The position numbers and the translations under genes are program-made. Positions 1,875 through 57,627 of a stretch of DNA of 64,000 bases are shown piece after piece. The notes under the pieces were generated by a model. It was not told the origin of the DNA. It did not search any database and saw nothing but the letters and a program-made list of their open reading frames with translations. Source of the stretch: Candidatus Eiseniibacteriota bacterium. Lineage in GTDB: Bacteria > Eisenbacteria > RBG-16-71-46 > JABDJR01. The stretch is from the NCBI GenBank assembly GCA_963783375.1, contig CAWANH010000029.1, forward strand, positions 160,001 through 224,000. The letters run 5' to 3'. Each line of letters opens with the position of its first letter. Within the stretch, counting starts at the first letter, position 1.

Positions 1875-3804
1875 TTGGATCAGAACGCCAGTATCAAGCG
1901 AAGGGTCCAGAGCCTGATCAAGAAGGGTTCCTACGCCGAGGCCGCCGCCACCTACGAACAGTTGGCGGAGGCCGGCGATATGGATCCCTACGATTATGTG
2001 GTTCTGGGGGATCTGCTTATCCGGACCGGGCGCCGGCGGGAAGCGGTGGGCCGGTACGTGGAGGCGCTCAACAGCTACGCCGAAGCCGGGTTGAATCGGA
2101 ACGCCATCGCCCTGGCCAAGAAGGTGCGGCGCCTGGCCGCGGACAAAACCGTGATCCAGCGGCGGCTCGGCGATCTGTACGCCGCCGAGAGCCTGGAGAG
2201 CGAAGCGGCCCTGCACTACCTGGAATTCCTGGAGAGAGTGGACATCGAGGCCGAAGATGCCCCCGAGGAAGTCGAGCACGTTTGCCACCGGCTCCTGGAC
2301 CTGGCCCTGCCCTCCTTCGACGTGGTGGAGCGGGTGGTGGAGGCGGGGAAGCGGGTGGACCGGGAATCCCGGCTCGCCGCGGGGGTTCTGGAACAGGCCC
2401 GGCGGGCCGCCGCCCTCGACGAACCCGAGGTGGAGAAGCGGCTCACGGCGCTGGCGCTCTCCCTGGACGCCGAGCTCGACACCACCGCTCCCCCGTCGCT
2501 TCCCGCGGCGCCCGGGCGGGAAGAGACCGAAGACGCCCCCGGACCGGAGTTCATGGACCCCGGTGCGGTCCATCTCACGCCTTCCTCCCCCGATCCGCAG
2601 CCGGAATCCCCGGCGGAGCCCGCGCAACCGGCCGGGCCGCCGGTGCTCTCCCTGGACGATTTCTCCTACGACGATCCTCATACCGTGCACCTCGAGGCCT
2701 CGCCCGGGTCGGGGAACGGCGCCGGGGCGGAGATCGAGGATTCCGAAGCCCCGTCGAACCTGGCTCCCGACCTGGAGCTGGAGTCCCCGCGGCAGGAGTA
2801 GCGAACCGATCACGGAACCCTCCCCTGGCGCTCCCGCCGCGATATCCCACGGCTTCGGCGGAGCCTCGGAGGACGAAGCGGAAGAGGAGGAGGATCCCGC
2901 CGCGCTGCGCGCACGCGCCCTGGAATTCCTGGAAAAGAACGACCCACTCCGGGCCCAGCGGGAGCTCATGCGGGCGGCCCGCGCCTACTTCCAGATCGGG
3001 CACAGCCACGACGCCGAGGAACTCTACCGGCGGGTGGTTCAGCTCGACCCCAACCATCTGGACGCCCTGCGCGGCCTGGTGGAGCTCGCCCACATCAACG
3101 GCGAGAGCGGGAAGATGGCCCACTGGGGATGCGAGCTCGGCGACGTGCTCCTGGCCCGCGAGATGTATCCCGAGGCCAAGTTCCAGTTCGAGCGGGTTCT
3201 CGCCTTCGACGCGGAGAACGTGAAGGCCCGATCCCGGGTGAACCGGCTGAACACCATCGCCGGGGTGGAGGGGTCGTCCTTCGGCGCCCTGGCCCCGGAC
3301 GCCAGCGAGGTGGCCGGCGCCCAGGTCACCGTCCGGAACGATCCCCAGAACGAGAGCCAGAGCGCCTTCGATCTGTCCCAGATCCTGGACGAGTTCCGCA
3401 GCAAGGTCGAGGAGCAGATCCCCCGGGACGACCATCAGGGCCACTACGACCTCGGCGTCTCCTACAAGGAGATGGGGCTTTTCGCCGAAGCGGCCCAGGC
3501 CTTCGAGACCGCGGCCGAGGGGGGAGACAACCCTTCCCGGTCGCTGGAGATGCTGGCGGAATGCTATCTTCTTCTGGATCGGCATTCCGAGGCGCGCGAA
3601 GTTCTCGAGCGCATTCTCCCCGAGGCCGAGGGCGAGACCGAAGCGCGCCACCGCCTCCAACTGGGCCGGGCTCTCGAAGGCATGGGTGAATGGGACAAGG
3701 CAGAAGACGCATACTTCCAGGCCCTCGAACTGAACGAGGACCTGGTGGAAGCCGTGGAGCTCCTGGAGAGCATGGAGCAGCGGCGTGAGCGGGGAGCCGC
3801 GTAG
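1875..3804 (+). CDS. TPR-repeat protein, SgmX-like, split by a +1 frameshift near 2785-2790
   Basis: ORF 1875-2801 has N-terminal TPRs and an acidic Pro-rich linker; the 2257-3804 frame continues with TPRs and EFRSKVEEQI..GHYDLGVSYKEMGL. Removing one base (for example from the C4 run at 2785-2788) joins them. Confidence 0.75.
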
Positions 3805-4633
3805 CCCGGCTCCCGCCTCCTCCCGGGTCGATCTGCACTGCCACAGCTTCTACTCCGACGGTGAGCATGCCCCCGCCGACGTGGCGGCCATGGCCCGTCG
3901 GGCCGGCCTCTCCGCCCTCGCCCTCACCGATCACGACTGCCTGGAGGGCCTGGCCGAGTTCGTACGCGCCGCCGACGGATTCGAGCCCATCCCCGGGGTC
4001 GAGGTGAGCGCGCGGCGGAACCACACCGACGTCCACGTGGTGGGGCTCTTCGTCGATCCCGGGGACGAGCGGTTGCGCCGCCGCCTCCTGGATCTGGCCG
4101 AGACCCGGGCGGAGCGCACCCGGGCCATGGTGGCGCGGCTCCGGACCGCGGGCATCCGCATCTCCGAGGAGGAGGTCATGCGGTTCTCCACCCGCGGCAC
4201 CGTCGGCCGCCCGCACGTGGCCATGGCCCTGGTGGCTGTCCAGGCCGTGCAGTCGGTGGAGGACGCCTTCCGGAAGTACCTCCGGCCCGGCACCCCCGGA
4301 TACGTGCCCAAGCCGGGGCCGGCGCCCGAGGAGGCGGTGGCCTGGATCCACGAGGCGGGGGGCGTGGCGGTGCTGGCCCACCCCGGGCCCATGCACCACG
4401 ACGACTGGATCGCCCCCCTGGCCCGCGCCGGCCTCGACGGTCTCGAGGTCTGGCACCCCAAGCACAATTCCCGCCAGCAGGAGGTCTATCGGCGCCTGGC
4501 CGCCGATCTCGATCTGGTCCCCTCGGGAGGTTCCGATTATCATGGGGCGAGCGTGGGCGATGCCCTCATCGGTCAGGAACCGGTCCCCGCGGAGACGGTG
4601 GAGCGGTTGCGGCGGCGCCGCCGCCCCCGGTGA
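3785..4633 (+). CDS. PHP-domain phosphoesterase (YciV/TrpH-like)
   Basis: DLHCHSFYSDG, LTDHD, GVEVS, GRPHVA, LAHP and GGSDYHG motifs. Confidence 0.92.
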   Translation: MSGEPRSPAPASSRVDLHCHSFYSDGEHAPADVAAMARRAGLSALALTDHDCLEGLAEFVRAADGFEPIPGVEVSARRNHTDVHVVGLFVDPGDERLRRRLLDLAETRAERTRAMVARLRTAGIRISEEEVMRFSTRGTVGRPHVAMALVAVQAVQSVEDAFRKYLRPGTPGYVPKPGPAPEEAVAWIHEAGGVAVLAHPGPMHHDDWIAPLARAGLDGLEVWHPKHNSRQQEVYRRLAADLDLVPSGGSDYHGASVGDALIGQEPVPAETVERLRRRRRPR

Positions 4634-4705: not shown

Positions 4706-7236
4706 ATGACCGAACTCGAACGGCTCACCCTGACGACCGCTTTTCTGGCCGCCGTGGTCGCGGCGGGGCTGGCCCTGTCCTGGGTCCCCCACGTGGAACT
4801 GGTCACCCTTACCGTGTTCGCCGCCGGCATCGCCCTGGGGAGCGCCCGCGGGGCGCTGGTGGGCGCGGTGGGGATGCCGCTGTACGTCTTCGCCCTGAGC
4901 GCGCTCCGGGGTTTCCCGCCCTCTCCGCTCCCCATCCTCGCCGTCCAGGCCGCCGCATTCGCCCTCCCCGGGGTGGCGGGCGGGGTGTGGCGCCGCGTCT
5001 GGCTCGTTCACCCCTCCCGGCGGCGCCTCGGCCACCTGCTGCTCCCCGCCCTGGGGTTTCTCCTGGCGCTCCTCACCCAGGCCGCCCTGAACGTGGCCTA
5101 CGCCTGGTTCCTGAGCCCGGGAGCCGCCTCACGCCTCGCGGTGTTCCTGTCCGGCATGGCCTTCGGGCTGGTGGACATGGCGGTGAACGCGGCGGTGTTC
5201 GCCGCGGCGGGGCCCCCCACCGCGGCCATCCTCCGGCGTACCGCGCGAAGCCGTGGGTGGTGGGGGAGGGCGACCGCCGCGGCCGCTCTGGCGGTTCTGG
5301 CCCTGGCCTGGGGCGCTCCGGTCCGCCTCGCCGAAGCCGCGCCGGCGGACTCCCGGGCCACTCCCGTCGATGCCTTCGCCGCCCCGGTCGACACCTCGAG
5401 CGCTCCCCTCGACACCCTGGCCGCCCCGGTCGATTCTCTCGGCGGCGTGAAAGGGGACGTGGCGCTCCCCGACACCCTGGGACTCCCCGGCCCCGAGGCG
5501 GTGGCCGAGAGCCTGGGCGTTTCCCGGACGGCGGGGGCGCCGCTCCGCCGCCTCCGCCTGCTTCCCGAGCCGGTGTGGCACGGCTTCTCCGCGCTCACCG
5601 TCTCGCCCTCCGGCGCGCCGACCCTCGAGGACGCCGACCTCTGGGACGGCGGGTCGCGGTCCTGGACCACTGCGCCCGCGGTTCCGCGGAGCCTGGACCG
5701 GTGGGGCCTGGGTTGGGGACGGGTGCGGTACAGCTACGACGGGCTTCCCCTGGCCGGACCGGTGCACGACGACGGCGAGCCGCCCGATCTGCCGTTGGCC
5801 TGGCGGGGGGCCTGGCGGGAGCGGTGGACGGCGGCGGGGACGGCGATCGATCTCTCGAGCCCCCGGCCGCTCGCCGTCGAGCCGGTGAGCCAGGTCTCCC
5901 TCACCTCGGGGAGCCTGGGGCGGCGGACCGCGGAGTTCGGGCTCTTTCGGAACCTGGGTCCGGTGAACTTCGGCGGCGATCTCCGGGACCGCCAGGAGCA
6001 GGGCTACACCCTTCTCACCCAGGGGGACCAGAGCCGGCTCTGGCTCCGGCTGGAGTCGGTCCCCGGCCGGCGACCGGACTGGACGCTGGACGTGGCCAGC
6101 GGGAAGGAGAAGGACCGGTACCTCTCCAGCGGAACCCTCATTCGCTCCTCGCGACGGATCCAGGGGAGTTTGAGCGGCCCCTTCGCGGGGGGGAGACCCG
6201 GCTCGCGCTCCAGCTCCGGCGCCGGGCCCTGGCCCTCTACTCGGGCCCCGGGGCCTTCGGCGAGGTCATATTCGACGGCTACACCTTCCAGGCGGACTGG
6301 GCGCCGCCGGGGATCGAGGGGCTCGACGCGCGACTTCGCTTCGACCGCGACCGGCGGCGAAACGTCCTGGCCGACGACCGCACCCTGGACGGGGGGAGCG
6401 CGGGGGTCTCCTGGGGGCGTGCCGGGACGCGCTGGAACCTGGGCGCCGAGGCCTCGGCCGGCGATCAGGAGCCCTACGGGTTCACCTGGAACGGGACCGC
6501 CGCCGCCGAACTCCACCACGAGAGCTGGGGGGGACGGGTCTCGGTGAGCCACGAGGAGGACTTGCCGCCCCTGGTGATCGGGGTGGACCGGCCGACCCCC
6601 GAGGCGGGGTTCGCGAGCTTCCTCGAACTGTACGAGAATGCCCCCGATCCGGAATCGCGGACCGCGATCCGGGTCGAGGGGGGGGTGAGGGGAGAGCGCG
6701 CCGGGGTGAAGCTCGGGGCGTGGGCGGGGCGGATCCGCCACTATCTCCTGGGCTCGAATCCGCTCTGGACCCCATTCACCGATTACACCCCGCTCGTCGT
6801 TCCTTCCACCTCCGCCGATGTCCTGGGGCTCTACGGCTCGGTGCGGCTGAGCGCGGGGCGGGGGATCTACGGCGAGGGCGCGGCGCGGGTGCAGAACCGG
6901 GAGGCGCGCGCGGTGCCCTACCTGCCGGCCTTCGACGCCGACGGGGCGATCCACTGGCGCCGCTACTGGTTCAAGCGCTCGCTCGACCTCGACGCCGCAG
7001 TGGGCGGCGTCCTGATCGGTCCGCGCACCAACCCCGAGGGAGAGCGCTATCCCACCACGGCCCTGGGCTACGCGAAGCTGGTGGGCCGGGTGGACAACGG
7101 GCTCCTCATCCTCATGTTCCAGAACCTGGGGGGCGCGTACATGGAGTCCGACTTCCGCTCCAGCGACACCGTGACCCCGCTTCCCATCGCCGGCCAGACC
7201 TTCGTGATCGGGCTCACCATGTTCCTGGCCCAGTAG
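4706..7236 (+). CDS. ECF S-component-like membrane domain fused to a putative outer-membrane beta-barrel (porin/TonB-receptor-like); -1 frameshift in the G7 run at 6187-6193
   Basis: About six TM helices with PHVELVTLTVFAAGxxxG; then a signal-peptide-like segment (RATAAAALAVLALAWG..AEA), APVD repeats and alternating beta-strands ending FVIGLTMFLAQ. One extra G restores PFAGGETRLAL. Confidence 0.65.
5360..5440 (+). repeat. Four imperfect 21-bp (7-aa) repeats encoding TPVDAFA-APVDTSS-APLDTLA-APVDSL
   Basis: GCCGCCCCGGTCGA recurs 42 bp apart; the periodicity is visible in the translation. Confidence 0.6.
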
Positions 7237-7322: not shown

Positions 7323-7760
7323 TTGCGCCTCCTCGATCCCTTCACCCCCGCCGAGCGCCGCCTCGCGCTCCTCTGTTTCGTCCTGGCCGTGCTGGGATCC
7401 GTCGTTCACACCTCGCGCCGGCTCTCGCCGGAGGTGGAGGCATGGCTCGAGCGCGGGCCCGCGCCTCCGGGGGAGCCGCCCCCCCCGGCCGCGGCGGATT
7501 CCGTTCCGATCCCGCGGAAGTCCGTCCCGGCGCCCCCGCCGGCCGCGGCCGGCGCCGCCCCGGCCGGGAAGATCGACCCCAACACCGCCGGCCCGGAGCG
7601 CCTCACGGACCTCCCGGGAATCGGTCCCGCCCTCGCCGGGCGGATCGTGGTCGACCGGGAGCGACACGGCCCCTATCGCCGCGCCGAGGATCTCCTCCGG
7701 GTCCCCGGGATCGGTCCCGCCACCCTGCGGCGGATCCGCGCCGGGTTGAGCCTGCCATGA
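7323..7760 (+). CDS. comEA: ComEA-family helix-hairpin-helix DNA-binding protein
   Basis: N-terminal TM, Pro/Ala linker, IDPNTA..LPGIGPALA..IV..R...G.Y...EDL.RVPGIG. Confidence 0.88.
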   Translation: MRLLDPFTPAERRLALLCFVLAVLGSVVHTSRRLSPEVEAWLERGPAPPGEPPPPAAADSVPIPRKSVPAPPPAAAGAAPAGKIDPNTAGPERLTDLPGIGPALAGRIVVDRERHGPYRRAEDLLRVPGIGPATLRRIRAGLSLP

Positions 7761-7853
7761 GGCAGTTGCCGCCGTGGACCGGAGCCCGGGACCTCCTGTG
7801 GGTCGGTAAACCCACCCCGGCCGGTTCCTGCAAGGCGGACGGTCTTTCTCCCT

Positions 7854-7879
7854 TCAAGTTCCGGCTTCTCCGCCGATAC
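7854..7879 (+). promoter_or_regulatory. Sigma28-like promoter upstream of pilB
   Basis: TCAAGTTCCGGCTTCTCCGCCGATAC (TCAA-N14-GCCGATAC); the first 13 nt are identical to the motif at 16089. Confidence 0.55.
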
Positions 7880-7990
7880 CTACCTTGCAAAAGGCACGAC
7901 CGGGGGGAGCAATCTGCGCAGACGCTTTCCCGACCGCACCCGGTCACTTCGGGGCAGACGGATTCTCATGTCCGTCTGCGGAGGCATCGC

Positions 7991-9674
<1,684 letters not shown>

Positions 9675-9682
<8 letters not shown>

Positions 9683-10907
9683 CCCCGGCTATCCGAACTC
9701 CGGAAACCGTCCCGGCGCCCAGCGCCCTGGCCCCCCCCCCTCGCCCGCGGGGGCGCCCGCCGGTCCCGGCGCCGTCCCCGGCGCTGGCCCGTCCGCTACC
9801 GGCGGTGGACCGTCCGCTCCCGGCAAGGGCGAGACCAACATGCACGACCTCCTGCGGGAGATGATCACGAGGAAGGCCTCGGACCTTCACCTGACCGCCG
9901 GGGTTACCCCCATGTTCCGGGTGGACGGCCAGCTCATGGGCAGCAGCTACAAGGTGCTGAAGCCGGAAGCGTGCGAGCGTCTGTCCTACTCGGTGCTGAC
10001 CGAGGAGCAGCGCAAGGGGTTCGAGATGAAGCGCGAGATGGACGTATCCTTCGGGATTCCCGGCCTCTCCCGCTTCCGCGCCAACCTCTTCCTCCAGCGC
10101 GGAGTGGTCAGCATGGCCATTCGCCAGATCCCTTACAACGTGCAGACGGTGGAGCAGCTCGGTCTCCAGAAGACCATCGTGGATTTCGCCCACAAACCCA
10201 AGGGCCTGGTCCTGGTCACCGGTCCCACCGGCAGCGGCAAGTCCACCACCCTGGCCGCCCTCATCAACCTGATCAACGAGGAGCGCCACGGCCATATCAT
10301 GACCATCGAGGACCCGATCGAGTTCGTGCACCAGCACAAGAGCTGCATCGTGAACCAGCGGGAAGTTCACGCCGACACCGACAGCTTCGCCAACGCGCTC
10401 AAGTACGTCCTCCGGCAGGATCCGGACGTCATCATGTTGGGAGAAATGCGGGACCTGGAGACCATCGCCGCCGCCCTCACCATCGCCGAGACCGGCCACC
10501 TGGTCTTCGCCACCCTCCATACCAACTCCACCTTCGAGGCGGTGAACCGCGTGGTGGACGTGTTCCCTCCCTCCCAGCAGAAGCAGGTGCTGTCCCAGCT
10601 CGCCTTCGTGCTGGAGGGGGTGGTGGCCCAGCAGCTCCTGCCCCGGGCCCGCGGGGCGGGGCGGGTGTTGATCCCGGAGATCCTGGTGTGCACCCCGGCG
10701 GTGAAAGCGGTGGTTCGCGAGGGGAAGACCCATCAGATCTACACCCTCATGCAGGCGGGGAGCAAGCACGGCATGCAGACCATGAATCAGGCCCTATTCT
10801 CGGCTTACGCCAACCGCCTCATCTCCTACGAGGAGGCGATCGGCCGTAGCTTCGATCCCCAGGAGTTCGCCCAGATGACCTCGAAGAGCGGGCTCAGAGC
10901 GGCCTAG
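9675..10907 (+). CDS. pilT: Type IV pilus retraction ATPase with a Pro/Gly-rich N-terminal extension
   Basis: ASDLHL, GPTGSGKSTT, TIEDPIE, LRQDPD, ETGHLVFATLHT and AIRNLIRE-like AVKAVVREGK; ATG overlaps the end of pilB. Confidence 0.95.
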
Positions 10908-10930
10908 GCGGCCAAGGAGAGGAGTGAACC

Positions 10931-12154
10931 GTGCCCACCTACGTATGGAAAGGTAAGACGCTCTCGGGGGAGATCCAGAGCGGGGAGATGACCCTGGGGA
11001 ACCAGGAGGAAGTTCTCTCCCAGCTTCGCCGGAAGCGCATCATCGCCACCTTCGTTCGGGAGAAGCCCAAGCAGGTCTCCTTGAGCCTCCGGCTCAAGGG
11101 ATCGAGCGGGGTGAAGACCAAGGACCTGGCCATCTTCACCCGGCAGTTCGCGACCATGATCAACGCCGGGCTGCCCCTGGTGCAGTGCCTGGACATCCTC
11201 TCCCAGCAGGTGGACAACCCGGCCTTCAAGACCGTGATCGGGAGCGTGATGCACGACGTGGAGTCGGGATCCACCCTGGCCGAGGCCATGCGCCGGCACC
11301 CGAAGGTGTTCGACAAGCTGTTCACCAACATGGTGGAAGCCGGCGAGGCGGGCGGTGTCCTGGACGACATCCTTCTCCGTCTGGCCACCTACATCGAGAA
11401 GGCGGAAGCGCTCAAGCGGAAGATCAAGAGCGCCATGACCTACCCGATGGTGGTCCTGATCGTGGCCGTCGTGGCCACGTCGTTCATGCTGCTCTTCATC
11501 ATTCCCACCTTCGCCAAGATCTTCCTGGAGTTCGGGGGCGACCTGCCCCTGCCCACCAAGATCGTGCTCGGACTGTCGGGATTCCTCCGGGGCTACTGGT
11601 ACATCCTGGTCGGCGGGATCATCGGGGCGGTGGTGGCCTACCGGCGTTACGTGGCCACGGAGGGCGGACGAAGGACCGTGGATCGTCTGAAGCTCCGCCT
11701 GCCGATCCTGGGCGACGTGCTCCGCAAGGGCGCCATCGCCCGCTTCACCCGCACCCTCGGCACCCTGATCTCTTCGGGGGTGCCCATCCTCGACGGCCTG
11801 GAGATCACCGCCCAGACCTCGGGCAACAAGATCATCGAGGAGGCGATCATGTACACCCGGGGCTCCATCCGGGAAGGCGAGACCATCGCCGCGCCCCTGA
11901 AGGAGTCGAAGGTGTTCCCGCCCATGGTGGTGCAGATGATCGGGGTGGGCGAGGAAACCGGCGCCCTGGACGAGATGCTCAACAAGATCGCCACCTTCTA
12001 CGACGACGAGGTGAATACCGCGGTCGACACCCTGACCTCGGTCATCGAACCGGTCATGATCGTGGTCATGGGGCTCATCGTCGGCGGCATGGTCGTCGCC
12101 ATGTACCTGCCGATGTTCAAGCTCGTTTCGGTGGTGGCCGGTGGAGCGAACTAG
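10931..12154 (+). CDS. pilC: Type IV pilus inner-membrane platform protein (GspF family)
   Basis: FTRQFATMINAGLPL, AGEAGGVL, YP and GEETGALDEML motifs. Confidence 0.96.
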   Translation: MPTYVWKGKTLSGEIQSGEMTLGNQEEVLSQLRRKRIIATFVREKPKQVSLSLRLKGSSGVKTKDLAIFTRQFATMINAGLPLVQCLDILSQQVDNPAFKTVIGSVMHDVESGSTLAEAMRRHPKVFDKLFTNMVEAGEAGGVLDDILLRLATYIEKAEALKRKIKSAMTYPMVVLIVAVVATSFMLLFIIPTFAKIFLEFGGDLPLPTKIVLGLSGFLRGYWYILVGGIIGAVVAYRRYVATEGGRRTVDRLKLRLPILGDVLRKGAIARFTRTLGTLISSGVPILDGLEITAQTSGNKIIEEAIMYTRGSIREGETIAAPLKESKVFPPMVVQMIGVGEETGALDEMLNKIATFYDDEVNTAVDTLTSVIEPVMIVVMGLIVGGMVVAMYLPMFKLVSVVAGGAN

Positions 12155-13748
12155 GTCCCGCGTTTCTCCCGGGTACGGTGTGCCGGGCCAGCGCTGGCTG
12201 GCCCCGGCGCGCCTGGCCGCCGCCATCCTGCTCCTGGGGCTGACCCTGTTCGCGGGGGATGGCTACCGGTGGCCGGGGTTGGTCTACCTGGCCGCGGGAA
12301 TAGCGGGAGCGACCGCGCTCCTGGGGGGGTGGGTCCGTGGCGGCAGGAACGTGATCAGCCTGCTGTTCCTGGCCGATCTGGGATGGATCGGCCTGGCGGT
12401 GGTGGCCAGCGGGAGTCCCGAGGTGGGGTTCACCCTCCTCTTTCCCCTGGTGGCGTTCGGGGCGGGTCTTACCGTGGGAGGGAAACGGGCGCTGGGCCTG
12501 AGCCTTCTCGCCGGGGCCGCCCTGGTGGTTTCGGTCACCCGGCTTTCCGTGCCCCCCGCCGACCCGGCGTGGCTGGCCGTGCAGGGGCTCCTGGTCCTGG
12601 TGCTGGGGGTGGTGAGCGACCGCACCCGGGCGCTGTTGCTCTCGAGGGAGCGGGCGCTGGTCCACGCCTCCCGGGCCCTGGAGCGGATGAGGCTGGACAC
12701 CGACACCATCGTCCAGAACCTGGGAAGCGGTCTTCTGAGCCTGGATCGCGTCGGCTGTGTGGGGCACCTCAATCGGGCGGCGGAGGAGACCCTGGCGATT
12801 TCCGCGGAGAAAGTGCGGGGGAAGCGCTGTGTCGAGGCGCTTCCCGACTACCTGGCTCCGCTCCGGGATCTGGTCCTTTCCAGCCTGGCCGAGGGACGGT
12901 CCGCCCTCCGGTGCGAGATGGATCTTCTGGTGGACGGCCGCCGGGTGCCGCTCGGGGTGAGCACCACCATCCTCTACGGCGCCGAGGGCGAGACGACCGG
13001 GGTGGTGGCGCTCTTCCAGGACCTGACCGAGGTGCGCCGCCAGGAGGCCCTGGACCGCCGCCGGGACCGTCTGGCCGCGGTGGGCGAGCTGGCCGCGGGA
13101 ATCGCCCACGAGATCCGGAACAGCGTCCTTCCCCTGGGAGGATCGGTGCAGATCCTGGCCCAGGAGCTGACCCTGGATGCCGAACAGAAGAAGCTTTTCG
13201 AGGTCATCAGCCGGGAAATGGAGAACGTGGAGCGATTCGTCGGCGCGCTCCTCTCCTACACCCGGACCCAGACCCTCCACGCGAACCGGGTGGATCTCCG
13301 CGCCCTGGCCCGGGAAGCCGCGGATGAAATCCGGCTTTCCCGCCCGGACCCACCGGTGGTGGAGACCCGCGAGGGCGAGGCCTGGGCCTGGGGCGACGCC
13401 GACCAGCTTCGCCAGGCGGTACGGAACCTGGCCCTGAACGCCGCCGACGCCGCCGGGGACGCGGGGAAGGTGTTTCTTTCCAGCGGGTCGGCCGCCGATG
13501 GCCGGCCCTGGATCGAGGTGGAGGACGACGGTCCCGGCGTTCCCGCCGCCGACCGGGACAGGGTGTTTCAGCCCTTCTTCACCACCAAGCCGGGGGGGAC
13601 GGGTCTGGGCTTGGCCATAGTCGCCCGGATCACCGAGGACCACGGCGGCCAGCTCCAGCTTCTCGATTCGGCGCTGGGCGGGGCCCGTTTTCGCATGGTG
13701 CTCTCGGAACCGGCCGAAGACCCGTCGCTCCTGACGACGGCGGCCTGA
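12141..13748 (+). CDS. pilS: PilS-like membrane sensor histidine kinase (start uncertain)
   Basis: Multiple TMs, PAS domain, H-box AAGIAHEIRN, NLALNA, DDGPG, FFTTK..GTGLGL; lies between pilC and pilR. Confidence 0.85.
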   Translation: MERTRSRVSPGYGVPGQRWLAPARLAAAILLLGLTLFAGDGYRWPGLVYLAAGIAGATALLGGWVRGGRNVISLLFLADLGWIGLAVVASGSPEVGFTLLFPLVAFGAGLTVGGKRALGLSLLAGAALVVSVTRLSVPPADPAWLAVQGLLVLVLGVVSDRTRALLLSRERALVHASRALERMRLDTDTIVQNLGSGLLSLDRVGCVGHLNRAAEETLAISAEKVRGKRCVEALPDYLAPLRDLVLSSLAEGRSALRCEMDLLVDGRRVPLGVSTTILYGAEGETTGVVALFQDLTEVRRQEALDRRRDRLAAVGELAAGIAHEIRNSVLPLGGSVQILAQELTLDAEQKKLFEVISREMENVERFVGALLSYTRTQTLHANRVDLRALAREAADEIRLSRPDPPVVETREGEAWAWGDADQLRQAVRNLALNAADAAGDAGKVFLSSGSAADGRPWIEVEDDGPGVPAADRDRVFQPFFTTKPGGTGLGLAIVARITEDHGGQLQLLDSALGGARFRMVLSEPAEDPSLLTTAA

Positions 13749-13781
13749 GTGTTGGCTTCGACGACGAAAGGACTCTAGGAG

Positions 13782-15191
13782 ATGGCGCAAGAAAAGATCC
13801 TGGTGGTGGACGACGAACAGAGCATGATCCAGTTCCTCTCCGCCCTGCTCCGGCGCGAGGGGTACGAGGTACTCGCCGCCCGCTCCGGAGCCGAGGCGCT
13901 GGACGTCGCCCGGGAGCACGCGCCCGATGTGGTCATCACCGACATCAAGATGCCCGGTATGGACGGGTTGGCGCTCCTGGAAAGCCTCAAGCAGCAGGAC
14001 GAGAGCCTTCCGGTGATCATCATGACCGCCTACGCGTCCCAGAAGTCGGCCATCGATGCCTTGAACCTGGGGGCGTTCCAGTACATGGAGAAGCACGCCA
14101 AGAACGACGAGATCAAGCTGGCGGTGCGAAACGCCCTGGAGATGCGGAAGGTCCGTTCGGAGAACTCGTACCTCAAGCGCCAGCTCAAGAAGAGCCACGC
14201 CACCAAGGAGATCATCGGGAAGTCGGACCAGATGATGCAGGTGTTCAAGATGGTGGACAAGGTGGCCGAGACCGACTCCACCATCCTCATCTCCGGCGAA
14301 TCCGGCACCGGGAAGGAGCTGATCGCCCGGGAAATCCACTACCGGAGCCGCCGCTCCGGCGGGTCCTTCGTCTCCATCAATTGCGGGGCCCTGCCCAAGG
14401 ATCTCCTGGAGTCCAATCTCTTCGGGCACGTCAAGGGGTCCTTCACCGGTGCGGTGCGCGACCAGTTGGGGCTCTTCCAGGTGGCGGAGGGAGGCACGTT
14501 CTTCCTGGACGAGGTGGGGGAGACGCAGCCGGCCACGCAGGTGAAGCTCCTGCGCGCGCTCCAGGAGCGGGAGATCATACCGGTGGGCGGAACCAAGCCG
14601 ATCAAGATCGACGTGCGCCTGGTGGCCGCGACCAATTCCGACCTGGAGCGGGACGTCCGCGAGGGCCGGTTCCGCACCGACCTCTACTACCGTTTGAACG
14701 TGATCCCGCTCCGCCTGCCGTCGCTCCGCCAGCGGCTGGACGACATCCCGATCCTGGCCGACCACTTTCTCCGGCGGTTCCCGGGCCCCAACGGCCTGAA
14801 GCGCCTCAGCAAGCAGTGCCTGGAGGTTCTGGGCCGGTACAACTGGCCCGGGAACGTCCGTGAGCTGGAGAACGTGATCGAGCGGGCGGTGATCCTCTCC
14901 GAGTCGGACGAGATCGACGTGGAGGACCTTCCGGAGAAGGTGGTGCGTGGGGACGCCACCCGGGGGAGCCTGGTGATCGACCAGCCCGACTTCACCCTCG
15001 AGGAACTGGAACGGGAGTACATCCTCAAGGTGCTGGAGCACACCGGCTGGCAGAAGAAGCGGGCCTCGGACATCCTGGGGATCAACGCCTCCACTCTCTA
15101 CCGGAAGCTCCAGGCCTACAAGGCCCAGGGCCTGATCGCGGAAGGGGCGGATCACGAGGGAGACGACGAGATCCTGGACGCGGCCGCCTAG
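13782..15191 (+). CDS. pilR: Sigma54-dependent response regulator (PilR/NtrC family)
   Basis: REC domain (VVDDE, TDIKMP), GESGTGKE, LFGHVKGSFTGA, WPGNVRELEN and Fis-type HTH. Confidence 0.88.
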   Translation: MAQEKILVVDDEQSMIQFLSALLRREGYEVLAARSGAEALDVAREHAPDVVITDIKMPGMDGLALLESLKQQDESLPVIIMTAYASQKSAIDALNLGAFQYMEKHAKNDEIKLAVRNALEMRKVRSENSYLKRQLKKSHATKEIIGKSDQMMQVFKMVDKVAETDSTILISGESGTGKELIAREIHYRSRRSGGSFVSINCGALPKDLLESNLFGHVKGSFTGAVRDQLGLFQVAEGGTFFLDEVGETQPATQVKLLRALQEREIIPVGGTKPIKIDVRLVAATNSDLERDVREGRFRTDLYYRLNVIPLRLPSLRQRLDDIPILADHFLRRFPGPNGLKRLSKQCLEVLGRYNWPGNVRELENVIERAVILSESDEIDVEDLPEKVVRGDATRGSLVIDQPDFTLEELEREYILKVLEHTGWQKKRASDILGINASTLYRKLQAYKAQGLIAEGADHEGDDEILDAAA

Positions 15192-52261: not shown

Positions 52262-52337
52262 GCGACCCTAGCTCAGTTGGTAGAGCACGTGACTGAAAAT
52301 CACGGTGTCCCCAGTTCAATTCTGGGGGGTCGCACCA
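52262..52337 (+). tRNA. tRNA-Phe (GAA)
   Basis: Acceptor stem GCGACCC/GGGTCGC, anticodon arm CGTGA-CTGAAAA-TCACG, TTCAATT T-loop, encoded CCA. Confidence 0.97.
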
Positions 52338-57529: not shown

Positions 57530-57627
57530 GGAGACGAATGGGTCCTGGTGGGCCCCGAGGACTTCAAATCCTTCAGTCGGGCGCTGATACCGTCCGGGGT
57601 GGGTTCGATTCCCACGCGTCTCCGCCA
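57530..57627 (+). tRNA. selC: tRNA-Sec (UCA)
   Basis: Anticodon arm GAGGA-CTTCAAA-TCCTT; 6-bp D-stem GGGTCC/GGGCCC with 4-nt loop; long variable arm; 8/5 acceptor/T arrangement (8th pair A.G); G73 then CCA. Confidence 0.93.

Follow-up and report, generated by a model that had tools for sequence, protein, structure and literature searches.

A gene at positions 4706 to 7236 of a 64,000-nucleotide stretch of DNA from a Candidatus Eiseniibacteriota bacterium (assembly GCA_963783375.1, contig CAWANH010000029.1, positions 160,001 to 224,000; the whole stretch is referred to as the window) joins, in one reading frame, a predicted S-component of an energy-coupling factor (ECF) transporter to a predicted outer-membrane β-barrel. 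Here G000 denotes the genome carrying the window and G002 the closest genome, while f9, f10, f12, f17 and f18 are genome families. The frame opened by the ATG at 4706 is stop-free through the S-component-like part (aa 1-180), the junction, the linker and the start of the barrel (Table 1). At the junction, RRTARSRGWWGR (aa 177-188, nt 5234-5269) is followed by ATAAAALAVLALAWG (aa 189-203) and then by APVRLAEA/A to aa 212, the slash marking a possible cut. At a run of seven G residues the frame shifts, and the second frame ends FVIGLTMFLAQ, with its stop codon at 7234-7236.

Table 1. Coordinates of the fused gene, its parts and its conserved neighbours in the window
Feature	Positions	Strand	Basis or remark
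Single gene, 843 codons with the missing G restored	4706..7236	+	S-component, internal signal peptide, linker, plug, barrel
ECF S-component, six helices, aa 1-180	4706..5245	+	Model pLDDT 93.9; structural matches; CbrT 6FNP profile match
Internal signal-peptide-like segment	5234..5338	+	RxRGW motif in the basic part; uncharged stretch of 18 residues; possible cuts after aa 201-211
Low-complexity Ala/Pro/Asp/Thr linker, ~70 aa, predicted disordered	5339..5554	+	pLDDT <50 at 214-276, G002 model
Plug domain, aa ~284-393, conserved DG at 345-346	5555..5884	+	Structural alignment starts at model residue 284 = BtuB residue 10
22-stranded β-barrel, TonB-dependent transporter fold	5885..7233	+	Strands from residue 394, G002 model
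G7 run, assembly error for G8	6187..6193	+	Sequencing runs and G002
PHP-family phosphatase, conserved upstream neighbour	3785..4633	+	72 nt before the gene
ComEA-like helix-hairpin-helix gene, conserved downstream neighbour	7323..7760	+	

An extra G behind 6186 was present in three of the four sequencing runs compared, the fourth having no long contig there, and G002 has eight G residues at the same run and one 843-aa frame, 91% and 96% identical to the window's two fragments. The frameshift in the window is therefore an assembly error, and on the same evidence a programmed frameshift at the G7 run was rejected. The junction itself is crossed by a single gap-free contig of run X2 (4883-5346). 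One intact frame is also found in G003, G004 and G006, as in G002 (440 contigs); in G007 the gene is split over two contigs, yet the junction is read through. The sequence-only reading had described a frame passing from S-component to barrel without a stop and asked about relatives: the frame is confirmed from the ATG at 4706, and the fusion is conserved in related genomes. The frameshifted copy in the window, and that of G001, where a C7 run within the junction interrupts the gene (probably also an error), might suggest a faulty assembly or a pseudogene in place of a true fusion. Set against the G8 run in three sequencing runs and G002, four intact relatives, and 33 full-length fused proteins from many sources, that explanation has a negligible chance of being right, and the in-frame fusion is real.

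Residues 1-212 of the window's protein were modelled at a predicted local distance difference test score (pLDDT) of 93.9, with a separate helix (185-201) besides the six of the S-component. In a fold search with this model the top 19 rows were all S-components, the best being FolT (Z 16.3, root-mean-square deviation (rmsd) 3.1, 165 residues aligned), with the next family at only Z 8.6; Foldseek E-values were weak, at 0.05 and above. The six-helix S-component recognized in the sequence-only reading is thus supported by the predicted fold. CbrT and BtuM were not among the rows listed in the fold searches, and the only PDB match of the family profile under an E-value of 0.01 was CbrT (6FNP, E 7.3e-6), BtuM not being matched. 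Orthologous S-components pass the Pfam PF12822/PF07155 cut-off of 30.7, e.g., G019 (32.9 bits), P0074 (43) and P0148 (42.3); NCBIfam gave no match for either window fragment. Helix 1 carries AxxxA twice (A12/A16 and A15/A19), and it is by an AxxxA surface on helix 1 that group II S-components dock on EcfT. A PHVE loop lies at 4787-4801. The pair N29/H157, present in 137 of 175 family rows, is replaced by H29/D157 in all 11 rows of the window's subclade (window 4790-4792 and 5174-5176), a swap that suggests a contact between the two residues in the pocket.

Fold results for the barrel rest on the model of the G002 protein (91-96% identical to the window), which has a pLDDT of 75.7 and a predicted template modelling score of 0.71 and in which six helices are followed by a seventh (189-201), a disordered linker and 22 strands. 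Its residues 284-843 best match BtuB (Foldseek E 7.5e-17; Z 25.4, rmsd 3.8, 479 aligned), PirA and Cir differing from it by no more than 1 Z, so that the earlier assignment of the C-terminal part as a β-barrel is borne out by a predicted plug and 22 strands. Across the window's family the barrel frame is uninterrupted, with identities of 44-96%. Of 83 family barrels, 7 have a V-V-T-A-like TonB box, most of these being led by a riboswitch, and G000 has eight TonB_C matches over the cut-off.

The S-component was found in 122 of 206 genomes of the phylum. It is fused to the barrel in 9/9 f17 loci (five complete and four cut by contig ends) and in G011 and G038; the other families fetched have the two as separate genes. 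At the 50 separate loci with a whole barrel, the barrel starts from 100 nt before to 80 nt after the S-component stop and has its own signal peptide; 11 of them have 4-nt overlaps between the two genes. Both states occur within one genus, in which G021 has an ATGA overlap and G038 the fusion. A complete S domain is present in 127 library proteins, of which 22 are fusions of 776-902 aa, 97 are short and 8 are intermediate, and two clusters of fused proteins hold KSB1-labelled members (40 and 7 members). A metagenome scan yielded two loci out of 80 candidate stretches. In databases the fused genes carry a single-domain label or are called 'hypothetical protein'. At two loci, in G008 (L130:1921-4547) and G009 (L131), the S-component is missing and the PHP gene abuts a barrel with its own signal peptide; EcfT was not found in either genome.

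The main tree comprised 69 rows, i.e., 33 fused and 36 verified separate S domains, and was unrooted; it omitted the 97 short library proteins, three partial fused proteins, the four truncated f17 loci, G001 and G025. On it the state changes nine times between fused and separate, four of these changes being forced by starred branches. No single fused clade appeared in any of 200 bootstrap trees, and forcing one lowered the log-likelihood by 198.6 (approximately unbiased test, p 5e-138), so that a single fused clade was rejected. Because the tree is unrooted, gains and losses of the fusion are indistinguishable. A first tree of 175 rows gave 18 changes, eight of them forced; the smaller tree was preferred since the larger one included short library proteins that may be fragments.

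Candidate cleavage sites were scored with a home-made matrix covering positions -13 to +2 and trained only on 50 free barrel N-termini, the separate-barrel starts being picked by hand and kin not being independent in the statistics. The median score was 8.0 for fused junctions (n = 33) and 10.6 for free signals (n = 50, own family left out; p 0.31), compared with 2.5 for segments of S-domain helices (n = 519; p 6e-11). A small-x-small/Q motif was present at 17 of 33 fused junctions, against 3.2 expected in shuffles (maximum 9 over 1000 shuffles), and in 24 of the 50 free signals; Gln directly after the cut is a feature of signal peptidase I products in Bacteroidetes, and is variable elsewhere (PMC5837995). 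The uncharged stretch is 8-24 residues long in fused junctions and 9-29 in free signals. In the window the best score was 6.2, for ALA/W after A201, and the site AEA/A, which had been named from the sequence, scored -0.1 and can no longer be regarded as the best; the cut is therefore placed loosely, between 201 and 211.

Linker lengths bear on the same question. The predicted cut and the DG of the plug are 60-167 residues apart in fused proteins and 72-203 apart in free barrels (medians 110 versus 89, p 0.09), i.e., the fused linkers are not significantly longer. In P0140, P0011 and P0006, the last two belonging to the window's clade, this distance is 60, 73 and 75 aa, respectively. As the span from TonB box to DG alone takes ~62-75 residues, only ~0-13 spare residues would be left as a tether. 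The periplasm of E. coli is ~20 nm wide. Seven residues are reported to reach 2-3 nm, and the size of the periplasm is unknown for most species (PMC12528386). Given so few spare residues relative to the width of a periplasm, a tether spanning it is implausible in these three proteins.

In some relatives the two genes overlap. Within f10 (L059-L076, L092, L095, L096) the separate barrel starts ~94 nt before the S-component stop, inside helix 6 and in the -1 frame. The start is a hidden ATG, with a dual-coding overlap of 31 codons: 17 of 21 loci encode Leu-Trp as CTA-TGG or TTA-TGG, as against 1 such codon among 600 other Leu codons. A programmed frameshift in f10 was rejected in favour of this overlapping start. 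At the f18 loci (L056, L057, L058) the hydrophobic signal of the barrel overlaps the 3' end of the S-component gene, also in the -1 frame; no ATG or GTG for the barrel was found within 135 nt, the nearest TTG being at -160/-166 in two loci.

A candidate transport partner for the S-component was found elsewhere in G000. An EcfT-like gene over the Pfam CbiQ cut-off lies before truA (C29), ~445 kb from the fused gene, and a highly diverged EcfA/EcfA'-like tandem directly follows larB and larC on another contig (C3:235000-238546, L137). The initial ATPase screen gave no match over the cut-off, and the pair was found by its Q-loop; the best or second-best NCBIfam models of the two ATPases are ECF_ATPase_1 and _2, both below their cut-offs. 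The earlier statement that no ECF A or T genes are adjacent holds for the flanking open reading frames (ORFs), but a dispersed module exists in the genome. A solitary S-component like BtuM, considered for G000, was rejected because of these EcfT and EcfA/A' candidates. Outside f9, G000-type EcfT occurs in 74 of 84 S-positive versus 5 of 81 S-negative genomes. A model of the S-component with EcfT scored 0.66, versus 0.00 for the best control, with runs agreeing in at least 95% of contacts and a partner pLDDT of at least 76; the mark it passed was reached by 116 of 157 solved pairs and 2 of 215 mismatched ones. The contacts of lowest predicted error involve S-component residues 8-19, in helix 1, and residues 180-211 are not named in the interface. 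This pass may reflect the likeness of a textbook pair to solved ECF complexes.

For the substrate, the sequence-only reading had hinted at cobalamin, and this is supported through orthologues, i.e., by the CbrT profile match together with riboswitches and btuR. A cobalamin riboswitch lies directly upstream of seven orthologues (G011, five f12 genomes and one Zixibacteria locus); it was directly upstream in 4 of 16 loci checked. In all five f12 genomes and the fused G011 the single cobalamin riboswitch of the genome sits at the S-component/barrel locus. The barrels of f12, G011 and L104 pass the Pfam Plug and barrel cut-offs. A KSB1 fusion is directly followed by btuR, a context also reported for btuM (PMC6072759). 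A BtuC-type permease was detected in 1 of 41 genomes with the S-component versus 13 of 20 without it, and the absence of such permeases was also argued for CbrT (PMC5997447). None was found in G000 or in seven family members, and a weak FecCD match in G000, with a metal-binding protein next to it, seems by inspection to be the permease of a metal ABC transporter. Two methylmalonyl-CoA mutase genes are present in G000, and at 97% completeness no match to CobS was found there. We consider it quite likely that the substrate in the window's lineage is a cobamide.

These results suggest a model in which, rather more probably than otherwise, one precursor is cut at a built-in export signal to give a BtuB-like barrel and an S-component, the pair importing cobalamin or a related cobamide. 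The six helices would enter the inner membrane during translation, leaving both of their ends inside; the seventh hydrophobic segment, formerly the signal peptide of the barrel, would thread the rest of the chain through SecYEG; and signal peptidase I would cut between residues 201 and 211. The released barrel would be folded in the outer membrane by the β-barrel assembly machinery (BAM), and the S-component would retain the spent signal as a seventh helix in the inner membrane and work with the EcfA/EcfA'/EcfT module encoded elsewhere in ECF-driven import; its docking on EcfT is predicted. Fusion would fix a 1:1 output, which relatives would reach through an overlap of one gene's stop codon with the start codon of the next. 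Cleavage of a polyprotein by signal peptidase is the best reading because relatives with separate genes give the barrel its own signal and the observed fused forms are not one clade, and because fused junctions score like free signals and some linkers are too short for the periplasm. The polyprotein proposed earlier from the sequence is in this way upheld at the family level, by fold models, separate-gene orthologues, signal-peptide scoring and linker lengths, and cleavage of the precursor by signal peptidase I is very probable.

Several points weigh against this account. The evidence for cleavage is all comparative, and the scoring relies on a home-made matrix, hand-picked barrel starts and sequences that, being kin, are not independent; 10% of the helix controls score 8 or more, and the window's own junction does not exceed 6.2. 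An R-x(1,2)-G-W motif is kept in 11/11 full-length clade members, which is unusual for a disposable n-region, and the window's own ~70-aa linker could span a periplasm. At the position of BtuB's TonB box stands a degenerate LRRLRLLP, with a predicted strand nearby and no recognisable TonB box. Neither window fragment nor the G002 protein has a Pfam match, and by fold the S model is nearest to FolT/PanT, CbrT being absent among the listed rows. Concerning vitamin B12, no riboswitch was found upstream in 13/13 further loci; a scan of the whole window with Rfam at the gathering score returned only tRNAs; the N29/H157 pair is swapped to H/D in the window's copy; and G000 has a canonical BtuB-like gene (C28:1655956-1658398, L135) behind the genome's only cobalamin riboswitch. 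No btuFCD genes were seen beside that gene. Finally, EcfA, EcfA' and EcfT score far below the NCBIfam cut-offs, and f9 (e.g., L077-L091) has the S-component in 38 of 41 genomes, with EcfT detected in 0 of 41. None of the 11 f9 genomes searched yielded a BtuC-type permease, and the f9 S-component may be another solitary S-component for B12, after BtuM.

Some of these observations would fit a chain that stays uncut, in which helix 7 anchors the linker of the barrel in the inner membrane to form a one-chain trans-envelope device. The modest score of the window's junction, its 18-residue uncharged stretch, the invariant R-x(1,2)-G-W, the ~70-aa linker and the degenerate TonB box all agree with it. 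However, the clade members P0006 and P0011 have ~11-13 linker residues, the linkers of fused forms do not significantly exceed those of free barrels in length, uncharged stretches match those of free signal peptides, small-x-small/Q is enriched at fused junctions, and the relatives with separate genes function untethered with plugs that are equally divergent, so that we rate the uncut chain as improbable. Further still from what we expect is a version in which the S-component of the whole chain, toppling on the ECF module at the expense of ATP, would pull the TonB-box-less plug through helix 7 and the 70-residue linker, making a TonB-independent importer across two membranes. An equally slight chance attaches to the barrel being made mainly from an internal start in helix 6, with the fusion as a read-through overlap whose long product is still cut or degraded. 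The separate f10 barrels begin ~94 nt inside helix 6 by rare codon choice, an in-frame ATG at 5177 of the window lies two codons away from the f10 position, and in G038 and P0090 the junction itself contains a Met. The earlier statement that the junction lacks an in-frame ATG or GTG must accordingly be qualified, for such codons exist ~20-30 codons upstream of it, in helix 6 (ATG at 5177-5179). Against the internal start, the window's Met is shared by only 7 of 11 full-length clade members, and, because no stop codon follows the S part, the S-component can come solely from the long product, so that cutting would still be needed.

The alternative with the largest share of our doubt, itself unlikely, keeps the cut polyprotein and changes its use: the pair would take up another micronutrient here, or the barrel would be drifting while the S-component takes cobamide from a separate BtuB. 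Riboswitches and full Pfam scores for a TonB receptor coincide in f12, G011 and L104, and the window's family has neither; G000 has its separate riboswitch-led BtuB; the N29/H157 pair is swapped to H/D in the 11 rows of the window's subclade; and in G008 and G009 the barrel persists although the S-component is missing. On the other side, the barrel frame is intact and as conserved across the family as stated above, the pocket histidine has moved but is not lost, and no BtuC-type permease was found in G000 or the seven family members.

Among loci with listed neighbours the usual order is TPR, PHP, S-component, barrel, ComEA-like gene and pilB. The absence of an adjoining riboswitch, as first noted, stands for the window at the Rfam gathering score, as does that of ECF genes among the flanking ORFs; because only 72 nt separate the PHP gene from the fused gene, there is no room for a cobalamin riboswitch (~180 nt). 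The ORFs after the ComEA-like gene read as pilB-pilT-pilC, named by sequence recognition rather than by scanning. In the window (7323-15191) and at most related loci across the phylum, the ComEA-like gene and ORFs read as type IV pilus genes adjoin the S-component/barrel locus. The upstream TPR gene lies in two overlapping frames (1875-2801, up to 3804), and G006 has one 681-aa ORF; the split in the window is probably another assembly frameshift. The tRNAs found by Rfam include a selenocysteine tRNA at 57530-57623 and two more at 52262 and 53597.

A precedent for an internal signal is FbcH, the cytochrome b-c1 precursor of Bradyrhizobium japonicum, in which one gene encodes a polytopic inner-membrane protein with an internal signal and the product is cut into two proteins that remain together as one inner-membrane complex; here, unlike FbcH, the second product would reach the outer membrane through BAM. 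The barrel part resembles BtuB and other TonB-dependent transporters (1NQE, 3RGN) in its predicted plug and 22 strands, with BtuB as the best structural match, but differs in its 10-12% identity, in the lack of a Pfam match or recognisable TonB box in the window's family, and in having its signal ~180 residues into the chain. With ECF-CbrT of Lactobacillus delbrueckii (6FNP, PMC5997447) the system shares the six-helix S-component, a PN-type loop 1, the F-x-x-x-H-x-x-x-N of helix 6, a shared and separately encoded ECF module and missing BtuC-type permeases; CbrT, however, is a stand-alone protein of a one-membrane bacterium, whereas here the S-component is fused or adjacent to a predicted outer-membrane receptor and has the H29/D157 swap. 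BtuM of Thiobacillus denitrificans is likewise a B12 importer of Gram-negative bacteria with the S-component fold, predicted through co-localisation with btuB and found beside btuR (PMC6072759). Its homologues are nearly all in genomes without an ECF module and it binds via a cysteine, whereas here a module is present and co-occurs. The word 'fused' is absent from the main text of the BtuM paper, and the main text of a survey of the S-component fold (PMC11109136) lacks the words barrel, TonB and outer membrane; the supplementary tables of either could list such architectures.

A search of the open-access literature returned no report of a fusion of an S-component with a receptor, or of a polyprotein of inner- and outer-membrane proteins. 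Both parts are known folds, and it is their fusion that was not found reported there. Outer-membrane barrels are taught as having an N-terminal signal and as travelling apart from polytopic inner-membrane proteins. A barrel that forms the tail of a six-helix transporter, in a lineage that has switched repeatedly between fused and separate states, offers a direct test of how signal peptidase and BAM deal with an internal signal. The finding also points to an unrecognised B12 route, combining a TonB-type receptor with an ECF transporter, in those 122 of 206 genomes of an uncultured phylum that have the S-component and in genomes labelled KSB1 or Zixibacteria, for the most part ones that yielded no BtuC-type permease.

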